Shown piece after piece: positions 22,533 through 64,000 of a stretch of 64,000 bases of DNA; position 1 is the first letter of the stretch, and every line of letters begins with the position of its first letter. The stretch lies in IMG/VR virus record IMGVR_UViG_3300045988_092720; one strand, 5' to 3'. The notes beneath the pieces were generated by a model. That model was not told the origin of the DNA and ran no database searches. It saw only the letters and a list, made by a program, of their open reading frames with translations. The stretch comes from a virus. The translations under genes and the position numbers were made by a program.

Positions 22533-23368
22533 ACTAAGTGTAACGTATTACGAAGTGTAATTCAATATTACGCTGAGTAATGTTATTCTTCTTTGTTTTA
22601 TATACTAAGTTGTAGTAATGTTATTACGTTCTAAGTGGTAGCGTTATAAATACCTAAAATACTGATACTGTAGAACCGCTACGCTAGGTGAAATACTCAC
22701 ATCGTTAGTTGCTGTAGTTGTAGATAATACCAAGAAGGAATATCTTTGTTCGTATTTTCTTTTTCTTATGTGTATTACCAACTAATCAATATCTGAACGC
22801 TAGTGAAGATATTCTGCGAACGCACCAGTTATGAATACCAAGTAACTGTATCACTTATTGGTAGTAATGTTGAGCATCTACTCTATATCTGTTACTACGC
22901 ACTTCGTTTGTAACTACTTCGTAGTTGATTGTAGTATATATTAATTAGTGAATATCTACTGTATTCTCTACTCGATGATTGCCCCAGTTAGTGCCGAGGT
23001 ATTGCCCCAATATACATGGGAGCGTATATACTTGTTTGGTATATAATCGAAACTTCATAGTTAATACTAAGGTAGCCCAGGTGTAGCTTTACCTACCACT
23101 CAAAAGAGTTTGTTTCGACTGCCATCTACGACGGGACAAAATCTGGGAAAATTGCACGCCAAACAGCCCCTGTCTCACAGCCATATTACCGAGTTGCTAA
23201 TTCGGTTCCGTTATTTTCAGTTGGTTTACGTTCTCAACACTATTCCGATATGATGTTTTATAAACATATTTAGTCAATACTCTGGATATACATGAGACTG
23301 CATGAACTTTCAAGGTTTGCCTATCTCCGTGCAATATGTATATTAGCAACCAGATATACTGAGTTGTG

Positions 23369-24437: not shown

Positions 24438-24879
24438 TCAAATCCCAACGCATATCAGGGTCATCATCATAGATAGAATACCCGTCAATAATTGCCCAGT
24501 CATTGTGTGTTTTAAAATGTTCTTTATCAATTTCCCAACCTTTAGCATCAGCAATGGTTTTAACAATCATAGCCATTTTATTAACTTGTGCATCAGTTGG
24601 TGGAACAGTTCCCCATCTAACATTTCCTTCTGTATCTACGCTTGCATCTGCACAGCAAAGAATAGATACACCAATATTACCTGTATTACGATGCCATGTA
24701 TGTTTACCAGTAGCATCAAAACTGTTAAAATCAGACCATACACGCCCATCACCTAAAATATTTAAGTGGTAGTAAGGGGAGGTATTTTCATACCCCCCAC
24801 CACTCCAATGTAAGGTTACTTGGTCGGCATGGCAATTAGCTGCTAAATAAGCAATATCATTTAGAGTATAAAAAGCCAT
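24346..24879 (-). CDS. N-acetylmuramoyl-L-alanine amidase (amidase_2/PGRP, T7-lysozyme-like) endolysin
   Basis: LHWSGGG...TWHRNTGNIGVSILC...IDKEHFKTHND pattern of Zn amidase_2; no cell-wall-binding domain. Confidence 0.6.
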   Translation of the reverse strand: MAFYTLNDIAYLAANCHADQVTLHWSGGGYENTSPYYHLNILGDGRVWSDFNSFDATGKHTWHRNTGNIGVSILCCADASVDTEGNVRWGTVPPTDAQVNKMAMIVKTIADAKGWEIDKEHFKTHNDWAIIDGYSIYDDDPDMRWDLIALPQEDGDGGAIIRGKAIWYHYHPEECKD

Positions 24880-27800
24880 TATTCCTCCTCAATACCGTCA
24901 TATAAACCATCAACAAATGTGTTATAAACATTAGCTTGTTCCTTGACCTTATCAGCCTCCACGGAAGATTTTTTAGGTAAGTATTTATTAGCCTTGTCAA
25001 TCGCAGACATTTGTTTCAATTCTCTTGCATCTCTAAGCTGTTTGCCAGTTACACCAAAGTCTTTAATACGTTGTTTGTTTTCTGGAGATGGGTCACGCAA
25101 GAAGTCATTAATAGCTTCTTTCTTCCCATCTTTAAGCTCTTGATTTGCCATAGTAAGTCTATAAGCTAAATCATTTTCTATAGACTCACGAACAGGTCTG
25201 AAACCTAACAATTTCATAAAACGCTCTTCAGATGTATATGCACCTTTATTTTCAGCATTTTTCCAGTCACGCATATTACCAGTGTATGCTTGATAGAAGT
25301 TGCCAAGTTGTGGAGATAACGCATGACTTACGCCTGTTACTACATCTCGCCAATCATGACTATTCCTAGCCACATCGCCAAGAGCACCATACGTAGATAA
25401 TGTAGGACCTAGTAATTCGCTACCACTACTAGGTGTTAAATCACCAAAGCCAACATTTCGGCTAAAGTCAACTCCAAACATAGATGGTGCACCCATAATA
25501 GCCATCATCGCTATACGTTGTTTAGTTTGGTCTTTACCAGCCCAATCATACAACACATCTTTTGTTCTATCTGTTAAGCCTTTACCTGTTAGCCATTTTA
25601 ACATATCATCGCCAGCACTCATGAATGGTAACCCCATAAAGCCAGCCATACCCATTGTAATACCAATAAAGCGACTTAATCCTTTATAGTCAATGGAGCC
25701 ATCAGGACCTTTGAATGCTGTAAATAAGAACTCAGCTTCCTTAACACCGAACTTCTTAAATTGCAAGATAGTTTTACCTAGTGTACCAAACTTAGTAAAT
25801 AACTGTGGAGAGTCAATATCTGTATAGTCAAAGTTTGTTTTAACTACGAAATCTTTGGCATATTCCATAGCCTTTTTATAAGCCTCTGGATTTTTAGTGT
25901 GTAAATCAGTAGTGTCTAAACCGTGTTTAGCAGCGTATTCTTCGTATGCGTGAATAGCAGCAACCTTACGAGTATAAGCATCGGCTTTCATAAAGCCTTT
26001 CATAGAAAGGTCAAATAATTTACCGAATTTAACTCCACCGATTGTAATTCTGCGATAATCTCCACTATCTAAGAATTCAGATGCTTGGCTTGCACTTTCT
26101 TCATACACTTCTAAATCATCAAATAATTGACCATATTTACCGTTTTTGCCACTCTTACCAGCTTGTTGCATAGCGTATTTTAATTGTGGCGTAAAGCCTG
26201 TTAAAGCTGCTACGTTAGCTAAAGTACCAAACTGTGCGATAGCGGCAGTAGGTCTAAATACACCTAATTTGAATACAGCCATAGCTTGCATATTACGGTT
26301 AAGAAGTGTTGTTACCCAATTATCACCCATATGTTTTGTCATATAGGCACCGATAAATGGAATTTCACGACCGATAGTATTTAATACCTTATCAGTATTA
26401 TTTGGTGCACCTATTACACGTTGAATATAGTTATGGACAATATCTTGTCGTGCGTTTTTAGCACCTGTACCATTACGACCGTATTGTTTTTCATAATTCT
26501 CACCATATACTTGTTCATAGTAACGTGTAGCAAAATCTAAGAATGGAGCATTGCCTTGATACTTCGCTTGTGTATTTGCATAATGGTAAATCGCTTTAAT
26601 ATGGTCTTCATTATGACCAAGCACGCCAGCACGTTTAAGATTATGCTTATTCCACATTTGAGCACCAGAACTACGGTATAAATATGCACTAACATTATCG
26701 TGTGTTAATACGCCATCTTTATCTTTCTTTAAGAGCTTTTCAAAGTTAGCCATACCAGCTTCTTTTTGTAGTTTTTTATAATCTAAACCAAGCTCTTTCA
26801 TACGTTCTTTGTTGTTAATTAGGTTTTGGAAATCATCATAAGTCATTGACTTATCTTTACCTTTTAGGAAGTGGTCAATGAATTTCTTAGTTTCTGTATA
26901 ATTACCTTGTACACGATTGAATAATGCTGCGGCATCCTCATCAGACATACGCTCATATACCTTATGTAATTCAGCTTCTTCATCTGTTAAGTTCGAATAG
27001 TAACCATCATAAGATTTAGATGCATCTGCTTGATATCTTTCTCTACGAATAGTCATGTAACCAACACCTTTTTCAACAGGTCTTGAGTCTACATATTTAT
27101 TCGCATCAGCTTCTGTATCAAAAGAAGTTAGTACCGTATACTGAGGGTAATATCTACCAGTTTCTGGGCTATACTTAACTTCCATTTTGTAAACACCATA
27201 ACGCTTATGCTCACGTGGAATATAGCCCCATAAGTCAGCAGATGGGTCCTTACCTCGTGATACTTGGTTGTCATTTACGTCTTTATGGATTTGGTTAAGT
27301 ACTTGGCGAATACCAACATATTTATCCCACAACCTTTCACTATAGCCTAAGTGTTTAGCATACGCTTTAGACATTTCCATTGCCACCTTGTTTGCATTAG
27401 CTTTATCTTTGTAGGAAGGGATATTTTCCTTACTAGAGATTACTTGGTATACATCCTTATTAACGCCAATATAAACATGATTACCTTTTTCTCTTTCAGC
27501 TTTTACAAACTTACGCATACGCTTATCGTCAGCTAAACCAAATTCCGTGAATGTATCTTCTGGTTTGATAATGGCGTATTTTAATTCACCGTTTAAATTA
27601 ACTGCTACTGGTTGAGCAAATTCACGACCACGTTTATCTACTTCACCTAATAGCTCATTCATTTTTTTATCTTCACCATTTTTTACATCCAAATCTGCAA
27701 ACTGTTTATCAAGCAGTTGCACATATTCAGTTTTCTTGCGACGATATGTGCGAGCGGCTACATATGCCTCTTTAATGATTGGCTTTAATTCTGGGATTAA

Positions 27801-30800
27801 TTTACGTGCCATAGATGATGGAGATTGTAACATTTTACGGAACCATGCAAAAGATATACCGTCTTCTGATGGATTGATACGCTCAATAATACCACCGCCA
27901 TTTTCCATAATGTCAGCAAGTAATTTTTGTTCAGCTTGGTCAATTCTGTCATTCTTTCTAATTGAATAATCAGTATCTTGCTTAATTTTTGCCAAAACTT
28001 TTGCGATAGGGGCTTCAGGTGTTGTAGTAGCACGATTACGTTGGTGTAATGTATCTAGTTTTTGTACACGTTTTCTATCCGCTAAAGCATCTTGGAAATG
28101 CTCTCTAATTTGTTGTTCACTAAAGATATTTGTATTACCATATGAGAACATTTCATTAATAAACGAATAATATTTTTGGTCTAGTTGTGGATTATTACCA
28201 AGTTTTGGTACCACCATAGCAGCTAAGAATAATTTATCTTTAGTGTCCATAGGGCTATTGATAATAGCTTGTGGTACATCTAAAAAGTCATGTGCGTTTT
28301 GGTTAGCCTGAGCTAGACCCATAATTAATTTTAAGCTGTTTGTGTCGCTTTCTGGATTGTTGATGCTTTGAATAAATTGTCTAATTCTTGTTCGTTGTTG
28401 AGATTTTCCAGCGAGTGCATCAAGGTTTTTACGTCCAAATTTTCCTTGATGTGAAACTGTTCCATCTTCACTTTGATTAGAGCCATCTTTACGTACAACT
28501 CCGAATGCTCTTTTAAGATTTTTAGAGGCACGTTGTATAACATCTTCAACAGACTGTGGGTCGTTTTCGCTGACAGATGCAAGTATTTTACCGTTGCCAA
28601 CTGCTCTGTATATTTCGCCTGCAAGTCCTTCATCTTTTTCAAGCTCCTCTCTCATTAAGTCTAATGTATCATTTACTACATTTTTTAAGTCAGCTGTCTT
28701 AGTAAAGTCAGTTGCACTATGTAATAATTCATGTACAAATGTGTCATTTGTTGGTGTAATATTATCACTTGTGATATATAATCGACCAGTAGATGGCATA
28801 TATGCACCATTAAATTTCAACCCTAATGGGTCATTATTTACTAATCTATCAGCTACATAAATCTCTAAATTAGGATGTGTACGAATATAATTTAATATAG
28901 TTACATACGCTTGTTGGTCGCCATTAACTACGTGCATAATAGATTTTAAGATATTACGCATTTCTCCATTTGTAAGTTTACCTAACCCTTTGGAACGGTC
29001 TGCAACCTTTTTCATGATACCCATTTCAATTTCACTAGGTTCATGGAACTTAGCATTTTTGCTATTAGATACTTTCTTGTCGCCTGTTACAGACATTTGA
29101 ATGTCATTAGTTGGCACAATTGTATATGTATCATCATTAATAATAACTTCATAGCCTAAACGAGAAGTAAGGTCTTTGTGAGATTTAAGGTAATTTTTAC
29201 CATTTTGGTCTAGTAAATCAGCATCAATAACAATGCCTTTGTTTTGACGAGCAACTTCCGCTAGTGCATGGAATGCATAGTCAGCAACTTCACTACCGTT
29301 GTTAAATAACGCTGATGGTACATATTCCGCATTAACTATAATTTTACCATCTTTAATTTCACTATCAATAATATCATTCATGGTGATAACACCCATATCA
29401 TATAAGTAACCATCTAATACTTCTTTAAAGTCGTCAGGGTCAATAAATTCTGGCACTTTAATTTCTACTGGGAATTCTTCACCTAGTTTGATATCCATTT
29501 TAATATCTGTGGTATAGATATCACCTTGATAGTTAGGAATAGATGCATGTAAAACTCCGTCTTTATAAGCACTCAATCGTAAAGCCGTAGACACTTGATT
29601 TTTTGTCTTTTTGTCTTTTAATTTTTCTTCTGTGATTTTAGAGTTTTTGCTAATGCGGTCATCCATAACCTCTGTAACAACGTCTTTGATTTCACTATAT
29701 ACACGTTTAGCTAATGGAGAATTAATATTATGTAGACGTGGTGCACCATTTGGGAATAGTTTCTTGGCACCTACTCTGCCAGCCATTGATTTATATTTGT
29801 TCTCATTACCAATAGCAGGATAAAGATGTACTGCACGATTGACTAATCTACCTAGCAAATGGTCGCCATTTGGATTGTCAAGTTCTTCCATCAACTTATC
29901 CATGCCAATAGCTTTAACACGTGTCAAACCTTTTTGAAGTGCGTTAAGAATGATAAAATTACGCATTCTATCATATCGACTAGCTTGCGTAACATCTGAA
30001 ATATTATAATCTTTGTCGAACCATAAACGAATATTTTCATCAAAATGACTAGGGCTATTCAAGAAAGCATTCAATACAACTTGAGGTATTTTTACTTCAC
30101 CACGATTAACAGCTTCCATTAACTCACGTTGAGATGGGATTTTATAATCAGGTACATTATTGAGAATACCCTTCCAAGCTGGAGCATACATTGGTTCTTT
30201 ACGCATTAATTGATTACGCTTAGCAATAATACCGTTGAGTATTTTACGGTATTCAGACTTGGAAATAAATGGATGACTATGTAAATATTGAATAGCATCG
30301 GCAATACTATTAATAATATCCATATGTTTTTCCATAACCGCTTGTTCATCTTTAATATTATCACTAATGTCGATATCACCAGTATCTTCGTTCGCTTGAT
30401 GTTTCAAATATTCTCTGAATGCCTGTTTCTCTTTTTTACCTTTATCCGTTTCCATTTGCAAGTCATCAACCATTTTTAATGCATCGACTTCGTTGATTTG
30501 TCCGCCACTTTGGATTTGAGATTTTAATTCAGCTAATTTTTCAACGTCTCGCATTACAGCTTTTTGGTCGTCAGTGACCATGTCAACAGTTCTAGGACCC
30601 CTAGGTCTAGTTTGTTTTTTAGGTTTTGGTTGGGCTGGATTTAAGCCTAGTCGTTCTTCATATGGAGTAACAATAGGTTCTTCGCCTGTAGGATTGTCAT
30701 GTTCGATAGTTTCTGTGTGGTCTTTTTTAACTGGTCTTGCTTCCCATTTTTTATTTGGGTTTGGTACAATAACATTATACGGACCAATATTACCACCAAG

Positions 30801-33260
30801 CACATCATTATTTGCATTTCTATATTTTAGAGCCTCTTTAGTGAGTGGCATTTTCATGCCAGTTTCACGACCAGTATGAGATAGATATTGCTGTATTTTC
30901 AATAAACCATCACGTGTTACTCTATCACTATTTAGATAATCGGCAATCATTTGGTCATCACCAGCGATATTACGGTCAGATGTTGCTAATTGTGTGTTAT
31001 TAACAACTTTTTCTGGCGTGCCATTCGGACGTACTGCAACTTGTGAGTTTTTTCTACGTGTTTCTTCTGCACTACGTTTAGCTTCATCAATGTTAGCTTG
31101 TAACATTCTGCGTTCGTTAGTAGTTAAGATTTTACGTACGTTATCAAATTGAGGTCCAGTAACATCAATACCATTTGCACCTAAAGTAATAAGTGTATCT
31201 TTGATTTTACTAGCAAGAGCGTGTTTTGCTGGTAAATAATTTGCATCATCTTTTGGAGGAAGTGTATTAATTACTTCTTCCATTTTTTCAGCAACATCAC
31301 GGTTTTCGATATAGCTTTTAGCACTGTCCTGTGTACGCTCTGTATTATCCATGTGTTTAACATAGTTTGTAATACGACCAAGCTCTTCATTTGTATAGCC
31401 ATTTCTTGATTTAATACCAGCTTTAGCTAAATAGTTACGTGGGTTTTTGGCTTGTTCATTGCGTCGAATATCAGAGCTATTAGCATCACGTTTACGTGCT
31501 TGCATTGCATTATGTACACGATACGCTGCATCTCTTGCTTTGATTGGGTTATCTTTATATTCATGCTCAAAGTATGTTTTATTTGGAGAATTCTCATATC
31601 GTTCATTATGATATGCATTTCTACGTTCATTAATAGCATCAAGCTGAGCTTGGAAAGCATTCTGCTTTTCTCTTTCTTGAATTCTATTTGTAATATCACG
31701 CACAGATGTTTGGTCAGGGTTTTCACGTTCAAGGTTAGAGCGTTCTGCTTCTGTTAATTCAATACCAAGTCTATCAGCTTTTTCAGCAAGAGTTTCTTCT
31801 TGTGGTTGCTCCTGAACAGATGGTTCTTCTACTACTTCATTAGAACGTGTCATATCTTCATATAAACTACGAGAAAGTAAATTTGCTTCTTTGTTGGTAA
31901 AACCTAAATTAGCAAAGTTCTCAGCAAACATACGAGGAGATAAATCTTCAGCAGTTTTATCACCATGCAAGCCCATAATATTAGCACGCTCATCTTGTAC
32001 AGCTTCCATTGCTGCCGCATAGTCTTCTGGTGCTTTTTTATTCAATACTTGGTTTACAGAATTAGCGAAAGAACTTTCTTCCATCATTGGGGAATATGAA
32101 GCGTTAGAAATATCATCAACCTCTGTATTACCAAGAGGTGTATTATCAATAAATGTAGGTTCTTCAGCAACGATATCGCCTAAACCATCGTTTTGAACTA
32201 TAGGTCCTGCACTATCAGCAATAACATCTTCAGTTGATGTTAAGCCAGCCATTTCGTCAGCTTTATTTATGATTTTATTAGAAGCACCACGAACAGCACC
32301 ACCTACACCGCCTACAGCCATGGAGATGTTAAATGCGTCCTGTGCTGCCATATTCATATCATTGGTCCATGTAGATGGGTCTAACATAGATACTTGGTCA
32401 TAGCCCTCTTGACCTTTAATACGACCTTCAATAGCTTGTTGCCATGCTTCTGTATAGCCTTCTACTGCACTGTTAGCTGCATTACTAAGTAAACCTTTAA
32501 CCATTAGTTTACCGCCGTCTTTAGCAAATGCACTAGCTAACATGCCAACCTTACCAGATACACCGATACGGTCAGCTGCATAATCTAACATTGCAGGTCC
32601 CCAACCCTCACTCATAGATTGTCTAAAAGCATCACCTGCTACATCTGTGCCATACCCTGCATTACGATAATCATTGTAAATAGAGCCAGCATTTTGTACG
32701 TTCTCAAGACCAGAACCTACTGCAAGTTCTGTACCGTATTTAGCTACTTTACTTAAACCAGTAGCAACAGAGCCAGCTAATCCCTCAGATACGCCAGCTC
32801 TTGCTAATAAACCACCAATTTTACCTGCGTTTAAAATACCAGCAGTAGTACCGCCTGTAGACATAGCCATAGCTACTTGCGGAACGACATTACCGACAAA
32901 TTGACCACCTTGAGCCGCCCAATAGTGAGGATTTGTAACTTTATCTCCCCATGATAAATCAGCAGTATCTGGGATTGTACTTCTGTAAGCTGCTAGATTA
33001 GAATAGTAATTAGCTTCGTTTTCAGTTTTCCCACGTAGCCATTGTGCTGTATCGCTGTCAGATAGGGATAATCCATAAGATACCGCACCTAACATATCAG
33101 AACCTAAGCGGTCTAAACCAGCACTAAAGTTACCTACAAATTCATCAGCAATGCCATCATAATGTGCCTTGCCCATATAATCATATCCAAGAGTAGCAAG
33201 GTTATTACGATACTGGGCATCAGCATTTCTACTGGCTAACCCGTCTGTCCAATTTGCCAT
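24879..33260 (-). CDS. giant virion protein (2793 aa), either tape-measure-like or an ejected internal protein, with HEXXH motif
   Basis: 8.4-kb uninterrupted ORF; Gly/Ala-rich N-terminus; VHELLHSATDF (HEXXH at 28719-28733); Gly/Met-rich hydrophobic C-terminal segments; sits between the tail-lysozyme gene and the endolysin. Confidence 0.6.
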   Translation of the reverse strand: MANWTDGLASRNADAQYRNNLATLGYDYMGKAHYDGIADEFVGNFSAGLDRLGSDMLGAVSYGLSLSDSDTAQWLRGKTENEANYYSNLAAYRSTIPDTADLSWGDKVTNPHYWAAQGGQFVGNVVPQVAMAMSTGGTTAGILNAGKIGGLLARAGVSEGLAGSVATGLSKVAKYGTELAVGSGLENVQNAGSIYNDYRNAGYGTDVAGDAFRQSMSEGWGPAMLDYAADRIGVSGKVGMLASAFAKDGGKLMVKGLLSNAANSAVEGYTEAWQQAIEGRIKGQEGYDQVSMLDPSTWTNDMNMAAQDAFNISMAVGGVGGAVRGASNKIINKADEMAGLTSTEDVIADSAGPIVQNDGLGDIVAEEPTFIDNTPLGNTEVDDISNASYSPMMEESSFANSVNQVLNKKAPEDYAAAMEAVQDERANIMGLHGDKTAEDLSPRMFAENFANLGFTNKEANLLSRSLYEDMTRSNEVVEEPSVQEQPQEETLAEKADRLGIELTEAERSNLERENPDQTSVRDITNRIQEREKQNAFQAQLDAINERRNAYHNERYENSPNKTYFEHEYKDNPIKARDAAYRVHNAMQARKRDANSSDIRRNEQAKNPRNYLAKAGIKSRNGYTNEELGRITNYVKHMDNTERTQDSAKSYIENRDVAEKMEEVINTLPPKDDANYLPAKHALASKIKDTLITLGANGIDVTGPQFDNVRKILTTNERRMLQANIDEAKRSAEETRRKNSQVAVRPNGTPEKVVNNTQLATSDRNIAGDDQMIADYLNSDRVTRDGLLKIQQYLSHTGRETGMKMPLTKEALKYRNANNDVLGGNIGPYNVIVPNPNKKWEARPVKKDHTETIEHDNPTGEEPIVTPYEERLGLNPAQPKPKKQTRPRGPRTVDMVTDDQKAVMRDVEKLAELKSQIQSGGQINEVDALKMVDDLQMETDKGKKEKQAFREYLKHQANEDTGDIDISDNIKDEQAVMEKHMDIINSIADAIQYLHSHPFISKSEYRKILNGIIAKRNQLMRKEPMYAPAWKGILNNVPDYKIPSQRELMEAVNRGEVKIPQVVLNAFLNSPSHFDENIRLWFDKDYNISDVTQASRYDRMRNFIILNALQKGLTRVKAIGMDKLMEELDNPNGDHLLGRLVNRAVHLYPAIGNENKYKSMAGRVGAKKLFPNGAPRLHNINSPLAKRVYSEIKDVVTEVMDDRISKNSKITEEKLKDKKTKNQVSTALRLSAYKDGVLHASIPNYQGDIYTTDIKMDIKLGEEFPVEIKVPEFIDPDDFKEVLDGYLYDMGVITMNDIIDSEIKDGKIIVNAEYVPSALFNNGSEVADYAFHALAEVARQNKGIVIDADLLDQNGKNYLKSHKDLTSRLGYEVIINDDTYTIVPTNDIQMSVTGDKKVSNSKNAKFHEPSEIEMGIMKKVADRSKGLGKLTNGEMRNILKSIMHVVNGDQQAYVTILNYIRTHPNLEIYVADRLVNNDPLGLKFNGAYMPSTGRLYITSDNITPTNDTFVHELLHSATDFTKTADLKNVVNDTLDLMREELEKDEGLAGEIYRAVGNGKILASVSENDPQSVEDVIQRASKNLKRAFGVVRKDGSNQSEDGTVSHQGKFGRKNLDALAGKSQQRTRIRQFIQSINNPESDTNSLKLIMGLAQANQNAHDFLDVPQAIINSPMDTKDKLFLAAMVVPKLGNNPQLDQKYYSFINEMFSYGNTNIFSEQQIREHFQDALADRKRVQKLDTLHQRNRATTTPEAPIAKVLAKIKQDTDYSIRKNDRIDQAEQKLLADIMENGGGIIERINPSEDGISFAWFRKMLQSPSSMARKLIPELKPIIKEAYVAARTYRRKKTEYVQLLDKQFADLDVKNGEDKKMNELLGEVDKRGREFAQPVAVNLNGELKYAIIKPEDTFTEFGLADDKRMRKFVKAEREKGNHVYIGVNKDVYQVISSKENIPSYKDKANANKVAMEMSKAYAKHLGYSERLWDKYVGIRQVLNQIHKDVNDNQVSRGKDPSADLWGYIPREHKRYGVYKMEVKYSPETGRYYPQYTVLTSFDTEADANKYVDSRPVEKGVGYMTIRRERYQADASKSYDGYYSNLTDEEAELHKVYERMSDEDAAALFNRVQGNYTETKKFIDHFLKGKDKSMTYDDFQNLINNKERMKELGLDYKKLQKEAGMANFEKLLKKDKDGVLTHDNVSAYLYRSSGAQMWNKHNLKRAGVLGHNEDHIKAIYHYANTQAKYQGNAPFLDFATRYYEQVYGENYEKQYGRNGTGAKNARQDIVHNYIQRVIGAPNNTDKVLNTIGREIPFIGAYMTKHMGDNWVTTLLNRNMQAMAVFKLGVFRPTAAIAQFGTLANVAALTGFTPQLKYAMQQAGKSGKNGKYGQLFDDLEVYEESASQASEFLDSGDYRRITIGGVKFGKLFDLSMKGFMKADAYTRKVAAIHAYEEYAAKHGLDTTDLHTKNPEAYKKAMEYAKDFVVKTNFDYTDIDSPQLFTKFGTLGKTILQFKKFGVKEAEFLFTAFKGPDGSIDYKGLSRFIGITMGMAGFMGLPFMSAGDDMLKWLTGKGLTDRTKDVLYDWAGKDQTKQRIAMMAIMGAPSMFGVDFSRNVGFGDLTPSSGSELLGPTLSTYGALGDVARNSHDWRDVVTGVSHALSPQLGNFYQAYTGNMRDWKNAENKGAYTSEERFMKLLGFRPVRESIENDLAYRLTMANQELKDGKKEAINDFLRDPSPENKQRIKDFGVTGKQLRDARELKQMSAIDKANKYLPKKSSVEADKVKEQANVYNTFVDGLYDGIEEE

Positions 33261-56345: not shown

Positions 56346-56352
56346 TCCTAGG

Positions 56353-56385
56353 AGGGTAGTCTATTAAGGCTACCCTTTTTTTTTA
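56353..56385 (+). terminator. intrinsic terminator
   Basis: AGGGTAG-loop-CTACCCT hairpin followed by T9. Confidence 0.65.
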
Positions 56386-56902
56386 TTTTATATTTTAATT
56401 GTATACAATTATGTTTTATACTGTTATATTGGTATTATGGTAAATTTGATACAATGGAATTTTATATTATTCTTTTCCCCGCAAGTCAATTGTGTACAAT
56501 TGAATTGTATACTATTTTCTGGTGTTTTTTATGATGTTTAAAATCGAACATATGTTTATATACATTGTATAAAATTGAATTGTGTATAATGTAGCCTGCA
56601 ATCGAACACATTGTATGGAATTGTATTTTATGCAATTGAGTTTTATACTATTATCTTTTATAGAAATTGTATTTCATACAATTTGATTTTATTCTATTAT
56701 ATCTTATACTGTATTATCTTATATTGTTTATATTTTATAAAATGGAATTTGATACTTTTATTTTCCCCGCAACCGTATTGTATGCAATTGAATTGTATTC
56801 GATTATATTGTATTGTGTATCATCATACCCAATTAATTGTATGCAATCTTATTTTGTATTATTCAATCGTGATTATTGCTAGTTGTATAAAATTATATTT
56901 GA
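56386..56902. repeat. ORF-free iteron block (TTGTATNCAATT palindromes; two roughly 60-bp direct repeats)
   Basis: Copies such as aattgtatacaatt, gtgtacaattgaattgtatac, tgtatgcaattgaattgtat; long direct repeat aatggaattt..ttttccccgcaa..attgt.t.caattgaattgtat at about 56451 and about 56738. Confidence 0.7.
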
Positions 56903-56936
56903 GGCTATCCTATTGTGTAGGGTAGCCTTTTTTTTT
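56903..56936 (+). terminator. intrinsic terminator related to 56353..56385
   Basis: GGCTATCCTA-ttgtg-TAGGGTAGCC hairpin followed by T9. Confidence 0.6.
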
Positions 56937-57082
56937 ATGTCAAATTTTATTGTGTACAATTTAATCGTGTAATTTAAAACGCTTTATTTGCCCTGTACGG
57001 CGTTTTTATATGTTCCATGATAGATTATACCTAAAAATAGTTAGATAGGGCTTACAGCTTAAATAAATGAATTCTAGGGCTA

Positions 57083-57111
57083 TTGACAAAATTATATATA
57101 TGTGGTATTTT
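57083..57111 (+). promoter_or_regulatory. possible + strand promoter TTGACA-17-TGgTATTTT
   Basis: TTGACAaaattatatatatgtggTATTTT. Confidence 0.3.
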
Positions 57112-57467
57112 ATTATATTTACATTTAATAGAGAATACAATTCAATTTGATACAATTTAATTGATAGTAGAATAATCACGCACTATATATTTTTTATATA
57201 TTATATTTGATGCAATTTAATTTCACGCATACGTATTATATAAAATATAATTTGATGTAGCATCGAACATACGTTTGCTTTGGGTGGTTGGCTGGCTTGC
57301 TCCGTCGTCCGTCAGTTCGCATAGTTGCTGGGTTTTCAACCGATGGCTCGGAAATGTGGGATAGTCAGGTTGTCCCAACGGACAGCACCACGTTGGGTTG
57401 AGTACCTCGGTACTTCGTAGATTGGTGCGTAGTTCGCCAGAAATAAGAGGCGAGAAAGGGGTTCATT

Positions 57468-59960: not shown

Positions 59961-60276
59961 TAAAACTCCGCATGATATCACTATCCTTAATGAAGATGGT
60001 GAAGTAGTGCGGATAATTGAACCTACAGGTGAGGCTTGGAGATTACAGGAAGAAGTCCATTTTTCCCATTATGAAGATGGAGTCCCTGTAACAGAAAGTA
60101 GATACACATGTATTAATTTACCTCCTGAAAAGGAGAATGTTGCATACATTGTATCCCAACTGTTTATAAACTCTTATCCTCACCGTAGGGATTTAAGAGT
60201 GCCTGCTCAAGTGATTAGAACAGGCAGTAATATTATGGGTTGTTTGTCACTAGGTAGATTACCGAAAGGAGAATAA
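59947..60276 (+). CDS. hypothetical protein (about 109 aa, GTG start)
   Basis: AGGAGG RBS then GTG 59947; the track ORF starts at 59902. Confidence 0.4.
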   Translation: MELINKTPHDITILNEDGEVVRIIEPTGEAWRLQEEVHFSHYEDGVPVTESRYTCINLPPEKENVAYIVSQLFINSYPHRRDLRVPAQVIRTGSNIMGCLSLGRLPKGE

Positions 60277-60277
60277 A

Positions 60278-61063
60278 ATGGAAAACCTAGCTGTTACAGT
60301 TAATGCAGAAACTGGTTTTTCTGCATATATTGACACAGAAAATACTGTATGTTTCACTGAATTTAGTGGAACGAAATACTCCAAAGTTGACAGATTTTCT
60401 GACATTTGCTCTAAAATAGAAAAGGGCAAATACCGTATTCATGCCACTAAGTTTTATCGCCCTGAAGTCCTGTTAGTGCGAACTGATATGGATGACGAAG
60501 CTATTAAATACGGTGGGTTACCGTATCATGTAGGCTCTCAAACTTATGATATCGGCACAGTGCGTATTGGTCAAATTAATGGCGAAAAGTATGTATCTAT
60601 GATTGCCATTCCAAGAGCACAAGTAGCTAGTATTAAAAATAGTTTGAAGCGTTTTGGTACTGATTTACGAAGTATAGGATACTTTGGTGAGGGATTATAC
60701 CAAATAACTAAACGAAAAGCAAAACCTGATACGCCAATTGTAATTATTGCCGATGATGGTATTAGTTGCTTAGGTTTGGTATTCATTAATGGCTTATTAT
60801 GTGCTGCTCGTTATTACAACGATGTGGAAATTAAATTAGGTTTTGTGGAACGCTTAGTTGCATCAACAACTTTAGCACAAGACTTATACAATCCACAAGT
60901 TGCCTTGTTTACTCCTGAAAATAATGTCTGGACAAAAGCATTAAAAGGGGTAGAAATTGTAGATATTCGTCGCTATTATAGCAAAAATAAAGAAATCACA
61001 TCACCTTTGTTTTATAATAGTGTGGGCTTACTGTTTAAAAAAGGAGGAATTTTCAATGCCTAA
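60278..61063 (+). CDS. hypothetical protein (261 aa)
   Basis: AAAGGAGAA RBS. Confidence 0.5.
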   Translation: MENLAVTVNAETGFSAYIDTENTVCFTEFSGTKYSKVDRFSDICSKIEKGKYRIHATKFYRPEVLLVRTDMDDEAIKYGGLPYHVGSQTYDIGTVRIGQINGEKYVSMIAIPRAQVASIKNSLKRFGTDLRSIGYFGEGLYQITKRKAKPDTPIVIIADDGISCLGLVFINGLLCAARYYNDVEIKLGFVERLVASTTLAQDLYNPQVALFTPENNVWTKALKGVEIVDIRRYYSKNKEITSPLFYNSVGLLFKKGGIFNA

Positions 61064-61271
61064 TTTTGAAGTAAAACGCCATTTCCGTGTAGTGTTTGCT
61101 AAACCTACACGTAGTCTTCGATACAGATTATGTCAAGTGGGACGCTCAGAAACTCTACCAAATGGTAATATTGCCATTTATGCAAATCCATTCTACACAG
61201 ACAGTGAGTTTCATCGTAAAGCATCCAATTTAGTTACAGTGGATAGAATTATGGAGGGTGATTTTCTATGA
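61056..61271 (+). CDS. hypothetical protein (71 aa)
   Basis: AAGGAGG RBS then ATG 61056. Confidence 0.4.
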   Translation: MPNFEVKRHFRVVFAKPTRSLRYRLCQVGRSETLPNGNIAIYANPFYTDSEFHRKASNLVTVDRIMEGDFL

Positions 61272-62995
61272 GATTAACTTTAGGACGTATTGTAGAACAT
61301 AACAACCGTCGTTGGCGTGTTGTTGGTGATGGCTTCGACCATGAAGATAATTTTGGTTATATCCTAAATGATGGCGTTAATACAATCTTTGTTAAAGAGG
61401 AAGAACTGCAATACAAAACTGATTATAACATCAAGCCAGAAGATTGTCAACTTGTTAGATGCAATAATGGACGAACAGTTATTAACCATGGTGCTTTCTC
61501 GAACGACCATAAGCGATTACCATGGCGAATTGGCGATATTATTAAAGACCGTTATGGCAATATTCTTACTGTTGTCACTCGTGGCGATATAGTATACTAC
61601 TTCTGTGCTCGTATTGATAGCTACATTTATCAACTACCTGATGGTAATGATAATATTAAGCTAGGTACTAATGCTACCCATTGTGCTGTTACTGGTGAAG
61701 AACTAACAGATGCAATGGAAGTTCATACTAAATGTGGTGTGATTTATATAAATAAACGTAGTAAACCAGAATTCGTAAAACAATCCTGTTTAAGTGGGAA
61801 CTGGTATGAACCACAATACTTCCATTTAGTATTAGGCAAGGATTATGAAAATCTCTACGTTGGGTTTGACGAACTGCACCTTGTTCCTAATAATCCAGAT
61901 TTGGCTATTTGTAATGTTACAAATATTCCATTTTATATTGAGGATGAAAGAGATATTGTAAAGAGCACAGGTATTCATCCAGTACTTGTAGACTCCTTAA
62001 TGGTTACTTGTCCAGTATCTAATCTCTGTGGTTTAAAAAGAGAGATGTTGGTCGGATATATCCATGGTCAAGGTGCAACATTCTTCCATCCATCTATTAA
62101 AGACCAATTGGTATGTTATAATGGTACATATGGACGTTCTGAAGGTGACTTCTTTACCGTTGAAGATACTGGCGAGAAGTACAGCTATGCCGTAGCTGAC
62201 CAATTCTTTAGAGCCAACAACGGTAAATACTATAGCTCTCAATCAGTAGCTCCAATGTTAGGTATTCACCCTTATAACTTTAAACCAGAGCCGAAATTCT
62301 TTGGTAAAGGCAAAAAGTTTATTGGTATTGAATTAGAATTCCATAGCTGTGGTGAAAGCGACCGTACTGCTGATAGAATTATTGGTCCAATGAATAATAT
62401 TATCTACGCTAAACATGATGGCTCTCTACACGATGGTATTGAGTTTGTAACACATCCATGTACTCCAGAATACCATCTAAATGATATGGACTGGAATAAC
62501 TTTATCCAACGATTAGTTGATAATAATGGTGATGCAGGTTGTGGAGCTGGTATTCACATGCATGTAAATCGTAATTATTTTAAAGACGATTTGTGCATCG
62601 CTCGAATGGTACGTTTTATTGAAAATCACCATGACACAATTCTGCATATGTCCAATCGGACAGATAGCGACCGTAACTGGTGTGAAAAGTACAGATACAC
62701 TGTGAAAGAAATCAGAAGTATCTTTAGATACGCTCAAGGCTCTGGTGCTAAGTATAGAGCTCTAAATTTATGTCCTGCACATACAATTGAGTTCCGTATG
62801 TTTAGAAGCACTGTGAATGTTAATAGATTGAAAGCATATATCCAATTTGTTGATACTTTGACTAGCGTTGCTAATATGCAAAGTATTAAGTATATTGGTT
62901 GGTCTCATATTCGTAGACAAGCTGAAAAGCGTGGATATACAGAATTAATTCAGCTATTAGACAGTAAAAATATTGGTAAAGTAAAGGAGAAATAA
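61268..62995 (+). CDS. two-domain protein: Cys-rich N-terminal domain + C-terminal amidoligase-family (glutamine-synthetase-like fold) domain
   Basis: C-terminal region (about 62300-62992) has FIGIELEFHS...DGSLHDGIEFVTHP...GIHMHV...RALNL...TIEFRMFRS, the amidoligase_2 pattern. Confidence 0.5.
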   Translation: MRLTLGRIVEHNNRRWRVVGDGFDHEDNFGYILNDGVNTIFVKEEELQYKTDYNIKPEDCQLVRCNNGRTVINHGAFSNDHKRLPWRIGDIIKDRYGNILTVVTRGDIVYYFCARIDSYIYQLPDGNDNIKLGTNATHCAVTGEELTDAMEVHTKCGVIYINKRSKPEFVKQSCLSGNWYEPQYFHLVLGKDYENLYVGFDELHLVPNNPDLAICNVTNIPFYIEDERDIVKSTGIHPVLVDSLMVTCPVSNLCGLKREMLVGYIHGQGATFFHPSIKDQLVCYNGTYGRSEGDFFTVEDTGEKYSYAVADQFFRANNGKYYSSQSVAPMLGIHPYNFKPEPKFFGKGKKFIGIELEFHSCGESDRTADRIIGPMNNIIYAKHDGSLHDGIEFVTHPCTPEYHLNDMDWNNFIQRLVDNNGDAGCGAGIHMHVNRNYFKDDLCIARMVRFIENHHDTILHMSNRTDSDRNWCEKYRYTVKEIRSIFRYAQGSGAKYRALNLCPAHTIEFRMFRSTVNVNRLKAYIQFVDTLTSVANMQSIKYIGWSHIRRQAEKRGYTELIQLLDSKNIGKVKEK

Positions 62996-62999
62996 AATA

Positions 63000-64000
63000 T
63001 GTGTGTTATCGCTTATGCAAGTAAAGGTGTTGAAATTTCTGAAAAGGAGTTTCGCAACTGCTTTATAAATAACCCAGATGGGGCAGGGTTTATGATTTAT
63101 GACCCACAGAAGAAAAAGGTACATATCCGCAAAGGGTTTATGGACTTTGAAAGTTTTTGGTCTGCCGTTAAGGACCTACCTACGGATAAAGACCGTGTGT
63201 TTCATTTCCGTATCGCAACGTCTGGTAAGGTATCACCAGAATGTTGTCATCCTTTTATCCTAACAGATAATCTTGATGATATGCGTCAAACAGATGTATA
63301 CTCTGATATTGGTTTCTCCCATAATGGTGTAATGGCTGACTTCACTCCTACCGCAGCATTAAATGCACCTTATAGTGATACAATGCACTTTGGTGCTGAA
63401 ATTTTATATCCTTTACGTTCTAAGTTATACGAAGAAAGCACTCAATATCTTTTGAAAAAAGCCATGGGTAACAATAAGTATGCTATCCTTGGTAAAAAGG
63501 GTGCCATTATTCTTGGTGCTTGGAATACATCCAAAGAAACAGGTGTTCAATACTCTAATACATCCTACGAAGAACGCAAGAAATACTATGATTATGGTTC
63601 TTGTGGCAATTATGGATATGGTAGTTATAACAACTCCTATACATATTCTGTAGATGCAGATGCCGATGTTGATAAATTATCTGCCAAAATCAAAACATAT
63701 GGTGGTATTGTATCTTCTTGGTACTACGATACAGATAAAATTTACTTTACTGTAACAAAGTATTTGTATCCAACTAATTTCTCTGAGTACAATCTTCGTT
63801 ATGTTGGTTTTGGTGCAGGTTATTCTATCCCAAAGAAAGAAAAGAAAGTCGAAACTACGTATACAATGATACGTTGTTCGGCTGGTAATGTTCCAATGAA
63901 CCAAGAGAAAATCGAAATGATGATGCAATTCGTCGAAGATTGTGGTGGTTCTGTTTGGGATATGACAGAAAATACAGTATCGAAAGACATTGTATTGTAT
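63000..64000 (+). CDS. N-terminal-nucleophile (Ntn, YafJ-like class II glutamine amidotransferase-type) hydrolase, 3'-truncated by the window edge
   Basis: Starts MCVIAY (Cys2 nucleophile after Met removal) and has NPDGAGF; open to the window end; absent from the track because it has no stop. Confidence 0.5.

Follow-up and report, generated by a model that had tools for sequence, protein, structure and literature searches.

Locus organization

The viral DNA analyzed here (IMG/VR record IMGVR_UViG_3300045988_092720; one strand, 64,000 nucleotides (nt) in length, hereafter the window) ends in two adjoining open reading frames (ORFs), which are referred to as ORF A and ORF B and whose features are collected in Table 1. 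ORF A encodes a protein of 575 amino acids (aa) with an Amidoligase_2 domain at its C-terminus, while the next ORF starts with ATG-TGT at 62999, reads M-C-V-I-A-Y and carries an NPDGAGF motif, all as described in the original prediction. An in-frame TAA stands two codons 5' of the ORF B start codon; no longer N-terminus is therefore possible and the Met-Cys start is the only one available.

The contig extension foreseen in the original prediction was achieved with a 67,094 bp contig of the European Nucleotide Archive (ERZ28658550 scaffold_156, termed L001), which holds ORF A exactly, with 100% identity to the window across 1101 nt. By coordinate matching with L001, the window covers 64.0 kb of a genome of ~67 kb that is circular or permuted, and the absent 3 kb contain the end of ORF B, a SNF2-type helicase gene of 395 aa next downstream, an ORF of 180 aa and a few smaller ones. 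The last 37 aa of the complete, 371 aa ORF B are known from this identical contig. Gene content was read from precomputed Pfam matches on called genes covering most of the genome; outside that coverage lie part of a giant ORF and the tail-lysozyme gene over its first ~450 nt.

Table 1 Features of the ORF A/ORF B locus; coordinates are those of the window.
Feature	Coordinates	Strand	Description
Ribosome-binding site of ORF A, GGAGGG	61253..61258	+	Read from sequence; 10 nt upstream of ATG
ORF A	61268..62995	+	575 aa; N-terminal module then C-terminal Amidoligase_2 domain
N-terminal module of ORF A, aa 1-332	61268..62263	+	SH3/Tudor-like barrels, beta domain, hairpin/helix units
Amidoligase_2 catalytic domain of ORF A, aa 333-575	62264..62995	+	
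Ribosome-binding site of ORF B, AAGGAG	62984..62989	+	Within final ORF A codons; 9 nt upstream of ATG
ORF B, aa 1-334 of 371	62999..64000	+	Interrupted by window end
Predicted class-II glutamine amidotransferase / Ntn Cys-hydrolase domain of ORF B, aa 1-195	62999..63583	+	
C-terminal half of ORF B in the window	63584..64000	+	Disordered linker then ferredoxin-like domains

Ligase and hydrolase domains

The amidoligase assignment of ORF A is borne out by Pfam Amidoligase_2 (PF12224), which matched aa 391-530 with 26.6 bits against a gathering threshold of 22 (E 6.5e-6), and by PHROG 16683, which matched across aa 333-546 with 4.7e-38; the PHROG amidoligase families 2443 and 7469 also match. Full-length homologues numbered 40, with 53-96% identity and on contigs of ~65-68 kb, and two distant homologues have the C-terminal domain alone in common with ORF A. 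It can be seen from the alignment of 40 sequences, including the two distant ones, that E355, E357, D384, S386, E392, T395-H396-P397 and H430 are invariant, together with H432, R435, R449, R464, N500, T506, E508, R510 and S514. These residues form the pattern ExE...E...HxH..R...ExR and supply the conserved acidic, His and Arg positions with which Amidoligase_2 proteins bind metal, ATP and substrate, in a carboxylate-amine ligase fold of the glutamine-synthetase / glutamate-cysteine-ligase type. We equate E355/E357, E392, H430/H432 and E508/R510 with the ExE, E, HxH and ExR sites of glutamine synthetase, respectively.

ORF A is on these grounds firmly predicted to be an ATP-dependent carboxylate-amine ligase with the fold of glutamine synthetase, glutamate-cysteine ligase and PafA. 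To our knowledge, every characterised structural relative of ORF A forms or breaks an amide at the gamma-carboxyl of glutamate. A profile search of the PDB with ORF A returned methyltransferase matches only, which were judged spurious, and NCBIfam gave nothing useful for either ORF A or ORF B.

ORF B had been read as a YafJ-like class-II glutamine amidotransferase (GAT-II), that is, an N-terminal nucleophile (Ntn) hydrolase. The protein of the window does not by itself carry this assignment at the level of Pfam, as it scores 13.7 bits with GATase_4 and so falls below the gathering threshold of 23. The class nevertheless stands, because 33 of 96 homologues match GATase_4 (E <= 0.01; best 8.7e-7), the motifs are invariant and two fold searches agree. 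Homologues of ORF B (n = 365) are conserved over the first ~195 aa, and 519 relatives lie on viral contigs. The invariant positions are M1, C2, N25, G28-A29-G30, K45-G46, H69, R71, T74, H84, H108-N109-G110, D127 and S186-N187, with M1-C2 kept in all 96 of the 96 homologues. A profile search of the PDB with ORF B returned only the YafJ-like structure 1te5, at E 0.2, with which the ORF B motifs align.

The structure of ORF B was modelled on P0044, a protein 98% identical to it (predicted local distance difference test score, pLDDT, 86.6), and the model has the four-layer alpha-beta-beta-alpha fold of Ntn glutaminase domains. Its matches in the two fold searches, given here in the same order throughout, were the glutaminase domain of GlmS (3.7e-7; 13.6), EgtC (6.4e-4; 13.3), PurF (7.6e-4; 12.3) and the YafJ-like 1te5 (not listed in the one; 9.8 in the other). 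Sequence and model together make ORF B, with good confidence, a predicted Ntn cysteine hydrolase of the class-II glutamine amidotransferase fold.

The Arg, Asn-Gly and Asp expected of a gamma-glutamyl-binding site are present in ORF B as the invariant R71, N109-G110 and D127. By equivalence with GlmS and PurF, we take Arg71 and Asp127 to hold the alpha-carboxylate and alpha-amino group of the substrate, and Asn109-Gly110 to be the oxyanion hole. If these residue roles hold, the expected substrate of ORF B is free glutamine or a gamma-glutamyl amide whose alpha-amino acid head is free; ordinary peptide bonds would not be cleaved. Cys2 is predicted to become the N-terminal nucleophile only if the initiator Met is removed.

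Past the catalytic domain, a disordered linker rich in Tyr, Gly and Asn (aa ~195-208) leads into what are modelled as ferredoxin-like (beta-alpha-beta-beta-alpha-beta) domains with weak ACT/RRM-like matches. This C-terminal half is common to the closest relatives, the own clade of ORF B, only. No synthase domain is fused to ORF B.

Survey of the gene pair in viral and cellular contigs

Custom hidden Markov models (HMMs) of both catalytic domains were run across the fetched loci to survey their pairing. In 79 of 80 viral loci, the amidoligase and Ntn genes are same-strand neighbours; in the remaining locus the Ntn gene lies at the contig end. Adjacency was likewise found in 59 of 67 genome loci, and in 3 more the Ntn gene stands at a contig end. 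The paired genome loci belong to Negativicutes, Clostridia, Coriobacteriia, Bacteroidota (Prevotella), Spirochaetes (Treponema) and Ignavibacteria, as well as to Planctomycetota, Patescibacteria and a thaumarchaeal metagenome-assembled genome (MAG). The ligase gene usually precedes the Ntn gene; in one subgroup the Ntn gene has a short ligase ahead of it and a ligase of 829-869 aa behind it, and amidoligases of ~300 aa that have no N-terminal module occur among the relatives. With 40 homologues of ORF A, 365 of ORF B and a near-constant adjacency, the two genes are a tightly conserved pair and not a chance arrangement.

Cultured phages with direct relatives of ORF B comprise Marvin-like mycobacteriophages, the OM43 phages MEP401/402, Xanthomonas phage DES1, Sinorhizobium phage phiM6 and Bifidobacterium phages. 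In tblastn, Marvin gp106 and MEP402 gp07 were ~30% identical to ORF B, and in both phages the gene upstream of the Ntn gene has a sub-threshold Amidoligase_2 match. One apparent amidoligase-Ntn fusion of 681 aa (locus L108) was rejected, as its linker resembles an out-of-frame translation of high-GC DNA and its Ntn part still begins with Met-Cys.

Partner domains and the chemistry of the pair

Evidence on the chemistry comes from phage C75C1, in which a Met-Cys protein of 298 aa (our locus L087, 4001-4897) consists of an Ntn domain followed by a GGACT (gamma-glutamylamine cyclotransferase) domain (76.8 bits). Its Ntn domain aligned with the ORF B family over the whole domain in hhalign (98.65%, E 5e-16), and an Amidoligase_2 gene (106 bits) is situated 0.85 kb upstream of the fusion gene. 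When the C75C1 fusion was used as query, 252 clusters were found; among the matches listed (120 of 252), all were 220-407 aa long, nearly all had GGACT, and several Ntn-GGACT clusters also matched GATase_4 or GATase_6. Many of the Ntn-GGACT clusters occur on marine (Tara) contigs of phage size. Fusions of this kind between a GAT-II-type Ntn domain and GGACT form a widespread family, usually annotated solely as gamma-glutamyl cyclotransferase.

One further fusion locus has Amidoligase_2 1 kb upstream. At two others a divergent candidate ligase of 315-320 aa was seen, which has no Pfam match, gives very weak scores with our own amidoligase HMM (E 0.002 and 0.23, four sequences being searched) and shows the ExE / H / ExR pattern by eye. 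Amidoligase is also paired with a stand-alone gamma-glutamyl cyclotransferase in Firmicute prophages.

GGACT enzymes use the free alpha-amine of a gamma-glutamyl amide and free the amine as 5-oxoproline forms, a reaction in which no ammonia is produced. The partner of the ligase is thus repeatedly a single enzyme or a two-enzyme fusion acting to take gamma-glutamyl groups off amines, and a ligase making N-gamma-glutamyl amides is therefore favoured. The Ntn-GGACT fusions favour a narrowing of the probable chemistry of the pair to gamma-glutamyl amides with a free alpha-amine.

Proposed mechanism and alternatives

Our working model, to which we give about even weight for and against, is that ORF A makes and ORF B cleaves gamma-glutamyl amides on a target. 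ORF A would activate the gamma-carboxylate of glutamate with ATP as an acyl-phosphate and would join the activated glutamate to an amine on the target, yielding an N-gamma-glutamyl amide. ORF B, after removal of its Met, would use Cys1 to hydrolyse gamma-glutamyl amides that retain a free alpha-amino group, and could either remove the gamma-glutamyl group again or trim it. Removal could be meaningful where the group is a transient carrier as in EgtA/EgtC, where the enzymes are a writer/eraser pair as in PafA/Dop, or where components of the phage itself are protected.

Target selection, or binding of the two proteins to each other, would fall to the ORF A N-terminal module and the ORF B C-terminal domains, both of which are restricted to the same clade. 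The large and fast-evolving ligase module, with its SH3/Tudor-like barrels and with zinc-knuckle repeats in relatives, and the clade-specific hydrolase domains suggest as target a macromolecule or a host cell-wall precursor rather than a simple metabolite.

Several points weigh against the make-and-cleave model. We infer the substrate, the carboxylate donor and the acceptor alike from fold and gene context. ORF B matches ammonia-supplying glutaminase domains (GlmS, PurF) as well as it does EgtC, and with such equal fold scores the structure alone cannot separate hydrolase and ammonia-supply models. To pair a ligase with an enzyme that hydrolyses what the ligase makes would seem futile, unless some additional step or form of regulation gives it a purpose. 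The adjacency count is inflated by shared ancestry, as the 80 viral loci stem mostly from related phages of ~65 kb, and the more diverse set of genome contigs gives 59 of 67, not 67 of 67.

The ammonia-supply alternative, which we consider unlikely, takes the pair as a heteromeric glutamine-dependent amidotransferase: the ORF B glutaminase would hand ammonia to ORF A, and ORF A would amidate a carboxylate on its target. By analogy with MurT/GatD, a peptidoglycan precursor could, to give one example, be amidated in this way at its D-iso-glutamate or diaminopimelate carboxyl. The outcome could be an altered cell surface or host molecule, for instance one that blocks superinfection. The top fold matches of ORF B, the glutaminase domains of GlmS, GFAT and PurF, agree with such a role, as do its complete and invariant glutamine-binding and catalytic set and the close gene spacing expected of a complex; a modification of the cell wall against superinfection is, moreover, a hypothesis that citing papers credit to Iyer 2009. 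GGACT, as fused or alternative partner of the ligase, yields no ammonia, and its fusions and replacements therefore argue against ORF B as a mere ammonia supplier.

A role in small-molecule metabolism would retain the chemistry of our working model and differ in its target, with the ligase gamma-glutamylating a free amine (putrescine, cadaverine, spermidine) or building a glutathione-like peptide and the hydrolase recycling it, so that polyamine, thiol or nitrogen pools of the host are reshaped as by PuuA/PuuD or EgtA/EgtC. We regard it as distinctly improbable. It agrees with the closest structural relatives of both enzymes, all of which act on small molecules, with the amidoligases of ~300 aa among the relatives that have no N-terminal module, and with several papers that class amidoligase plus GATase among auxiliary metabolic genes. 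The N-terminal extensions of the ligases, however, look like macromolecule-recognition modules (zinc knuckles in 89 of 91, SH3/Tudor-like barrels in ORF A), and a fast-evolving, clade-specific ORF A N-terminus and ORF B C-terminus would be unusual for enzymes of universal metabolites.

DNA or nucleotide hypermodification, in which an amino-acid moiety is added to or trimmed from a 5-hydroxymethyl-pyrimidine derivative as a shield against restriction, appears very improbable. Lee et al. reported that amidoligase/amidotransferase genes co-occur with thymidine-hypermodification clusters in viral metagenomes, a co-occurrence left unexplained; a SNF2-type helicase gene stands beside the pair in 76 of 82 loci, replication genes are close by, and Tudor/KOW-like and zinc-knuckle modules can bind nucleic acids. 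Against this, no 5-hmdU DNA kinase, aGPT-Pplase, dUMP hydroxymethylase or TET/JBP enzyme was among the Pfam matches covering most of the genome; ThyX, dUTPase and ribonucleotide reductase, which are among them, would be expected of a phage with canonical DNA, and the SNF2 link is gone in Marvin, MEP402 and C75C1 and is probably a matter of synteny.

A further proposal, to which we attach little probability, is that the phage encodes both writer and eraser of a protein modification that needs no tag, with single gamma-linked glutamates placed on lysine epsilon-amines or N-termini. The SH3/Tudor-like module would dock ORF A on a host or phage protein and ORF B, or GGACT elsewhere, would act as the eraser. 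If true, it would amount to pupylation without Pup, serving early host takeover or counter-defence.

Comparison with described systems

The locus is a reduced, two-gene version of an already described and widespread phage cassette. Such a gamma-glutamyl amide / amidoligase cassette of phages is said to have been predicted by Iyer in 2009 from comparative genomics. The connection to gene pairs predicted in that way, drawn in the original prediction, holds good, since the same pair is present in phiEco32, LUZ24-like phages, RIO-1, Marvin and OM43 phages. Hardies 2013 described a seven-gene 'peptidoglycan modification cassette' in RIO-1-like phages, phiEco32, 7-11, PA11, tf, MR299-2, LUZ24, PaP3 and CW02, and the cassette has also been assigned to PSA-HP1. 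The LUZ24-like phage UFV-P2 carries COOH-NH2_lig, Amidoligase_2, GATase_6 and ATP-grasp genes, and pairs of amidoligase and GATase are reported from mycobacteriophage Marvin and the OM43 phages MEP401/402. The functions offered in these papers (cell-wall modification against superinfection, secondary metabolism, auxiliary metabolism) are hypotheses, and no biochemical test of amidoligase plus GAT-II family members was found in the literature searched, in line with the earlier remark that the family has barely been studied experimentally.

Shared with the cassette is an Amidoligase_2 ligase adjoining a class-II GATase-like Cys enzyme among early or DNA-metabolism genes, and this adjacency within a phage early or replication region is found here as well. 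The present phage differs in having only two of roughly seven genes; additional members (ATP-grasp, a second ligase of the COOH-NH2_lig type, a cyclotransferase) are absent from the Pfam matches of its called genes. Searches with ORF B do not reach the LUZ24-type GATase (486 aa, GATase_6), which is too distant, and ORF A differs by its clade-specific 330 aa N-terminal module, which lacks zinc knuckles. We take the SU10-type portal and capsid of this phage to be the structural type common to phiEco32-like phages, which would fit a distant common origin of the cassette. The features peculiar to the locus are the reduction to two genes, a ligase module with neither zinc knuckles nor detectable relatives, and the ferredoxin-like domains of the hydrolase.

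With respect to EgtA/EgtC, the phage has no homologues of EgtB or EgtD, the sequence identity does not suffice to place the proteins in those families, ORF A bears the Amidoligase_2 signature instead of that of EgtA/GshA in addition to its 330 aa module, and the setting is an apparent phage early operon and not a biosynthetic cluster. The difference from PafA/Dop lies in the reversing enzyme, which here has an Ntn and not a glutamine-synthetase-like fold, and in the donor, which would here be free glutamate and not a protein C-terminus. Class-II amidotransferases (GlmS, PurF, AsnB, GltS) and the YafJ-like 1te5 and 3mdn share with ORF B the fold, the N-terminal Cys and the motifs HxRxATxG, HPF, HNG and Ser-Asp. 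The ORF B domain is, by contrast, shorter (~195 aa), has no fused synthase and leads into ferredoxin-like domains (in relatives, into GGACT). PuuD of the PuuA/PuuD system is a class-I (triad) amidotransferase-type hydrolase and not an Ntn enzyme; PuuA/PuuD, gamma-glutamylmethylamide synthetase and the 1-naphthylamine-specific glutamine synthetase homologue further differ in being catabolic and chromosomal.

Phages of many bacterial phyla commonly carry amidoligase and GAT-II genes, which have been annotated for more than 15 years, and relatives of ORF B occur in prophage-like loci from Veillonella to Ignavibacteria. If the gamma-glutamyl model is true, phages would carry a widespread, ATP-driven and reversible modification system aimed at host molecules. 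The cultured cassette phages LUZ24, phiEco32, Marvin and MEP402 offer the better experimental entry.

N-terminal module of the ligase

Ahead of its catalytic domain, ORF A has SH3/Tudor-like beta-barrels at roughly aa 8-120, another beta domain at aa ~130-200 and three hairpin/helix units at aa ~210-312. The original prediction spoke of a Cys-rich N-terminal domain that belongs to no known family. Both parts are upheld, since the N-terminal ~330 aa found no family match and contain 10 Cys (3.0%), about four times the 0.76% of 18 other long ORFs of the phage; the domain is about 330 aa long and contains no CxxC motif. In a HMMER profile search of 1.84 billion representative proteins, the module found its own cluster and fragments only, apart from P0167, which was rejected as a spurious repetitive protein.

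Zero CxxC motifs were likewise counted in 35 of 35 members of the own family of ORF A. Outside this family, 91 of 117 partner ligases have an N-terminal extension of at least 100 aa, and 89 of these 91 contain at least two CxxC motifs (median 4, maximum 12); one extended partner ligase scores as LIM-like zinc fingers. In a MAFFT alignment, C215, C248 and C283 of ORF A, located in the three hairpin/helix units, stand opposite the CxxC repeats of P0042 and P0043, in a region that is poorly conserved. An hhalign comparison of the N-terminal profile with P0042 found no significant similarity, and part of the region aligned weakly with a Veillonella-type ligase (62.6% probability). The module could possibly be a degenerate, metal-free zinc-knuckle module, which we offer only as a lead.

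The ORF A N-terminus and the C-terminal part of ORF B, presumed to be targeting modules, are both fast-evolving and confined to the clade, which is what one expects of proteins that interact with a host.

Gene context, phage and probable host

The two genes are separated by the TAA stop of ORF A (62993-62995) and a single AAT codon, and stand in one frame. Read-through across 62993-62998 would join ORF A and ORF B and bury Cys2. The shared frame is probably incidental, because the counterparts in relatives (e.g. L011) overlap out of frame. The ATG of ORF A (61268) overlaps the TGA stop of a preceding ORF of 71-83 aa as ATGA, the C-terminus of that ORF reading ...GDFL. As no strong terminator-like site was found in a scan of the + strand from 57987 to ORF B, ORF A is probably co-transcribed with the small ORFs upstream. 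Both genes belong to a + strand block of mainly small unannotated ORFs that starts past an AT-rich repeat region and, from its gene layout, looks like an early operon.

Upstream ORFs of 261 and 83 aa have no PHROG family match, and one of 124 aa matches solely PHROG families of function unknown. These neighbours are conserved within the clade only, for which reason they were set aside as members of the system.

Directly after ORF B, just past the window end, lies the gene of the 395 aa SNF2-type helicase (L001, 12847-14034). A helicase of the same family is found downstream of the pair in 76 of 82 loci, at times after a few small ORFs. PADLOC matched its core generically with the ZorD, DpdE and DrmD models and, apart from such generic SNF2 cores, found no match for ORF A, ORF B or their neighbours. 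The helicase was not retained as a functional partner, because Marvin, MEP402 and C75C1 have no SNF2 gene there; the adjacency probably reflects synteny.

By Pfam, the genome encodes a SU10-type portal, a SU10-type major capsid protein and a terminase, an Amidase_2 lysin, a DNA polymerase III alpha subunit, a DnaG-DnaB primase-helicase, Rad52 and SSB for replication, and ribonucleotide reductase, ThyX and dUTPase for nucleotide supply. GC content is 35.5%, and no transfer RNA genes were found in a scan of the genome. A megablast search of INPHARED with positions 60000-64000 gave no match, and tblastn of cultured phages with ORF A gave three distant matches only, all in the C-terminal domain.

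The closest relative of ORF B in an isolate assembly is on a 247 kb contig of Veillonella sp. VA139 (45% identity), and Phascolarctobacterium MAGs also hold relatives of ORF B. A host among the Negativicutes is plausible from these sequence relationships. Many related contigs belong to an accession series that we believe to stem from human-microbiome samples, which hints at an oral or gut Negativicutes host.

Four further observations concern the phage genome at large and the DNA around ORF A. A RemA-like protein (PF04025; 2982-3398, - strand) is encoded among the replication genes beside dUTPase and SSB; this is a family of DNA-binding biofilm regulators of Firmicutes. An EGFOA RNA (RF02955), a structured RNA motif of unknown function, was found at 23046-23152 (- strand) in the replication-gene region with 73.4 bits against a gathering threshold of 37.7 and over the full model. 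The giant ORF of 2793 aa (24879-33260, - strand) lies between tail/structural genes and the Amidase_2 lysin gene; it has no Pfam match on record and its product could be an internal virion, tail or injection protein. Antisense to ORF A, a perfect sigma-70 consensus is present at 61422-61450 (- strand), with TTGACA, a 17 nt spacer, TATAAT and the extended -10 TG; it is the sole 12/12 match in the 9 kb scanned, has no obvious minus-strand gene downstream and may be a chance occurrence or an antisense promoter.

The repeat region ahead of the + strand small-ORF block is an AT-rich non-coding stretch of ~1.1 kb (56350-57460) that follows a 142 aa ORF. It contains at least 10 degenerate, iteron-like copies of ATTGTATRCAATTGAATTGTATA, which are partly palindromic and frequently spaced by 15 or 46 nt. 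A direct repeat of 95 nt occupies 56441-56535 and 56729-56823, and the + strand has two strong terminator-like hairpins (56350-56379 and 56901-56929). The stretch could serve as an origin, as an array of operators or as a promoter region for early genes.

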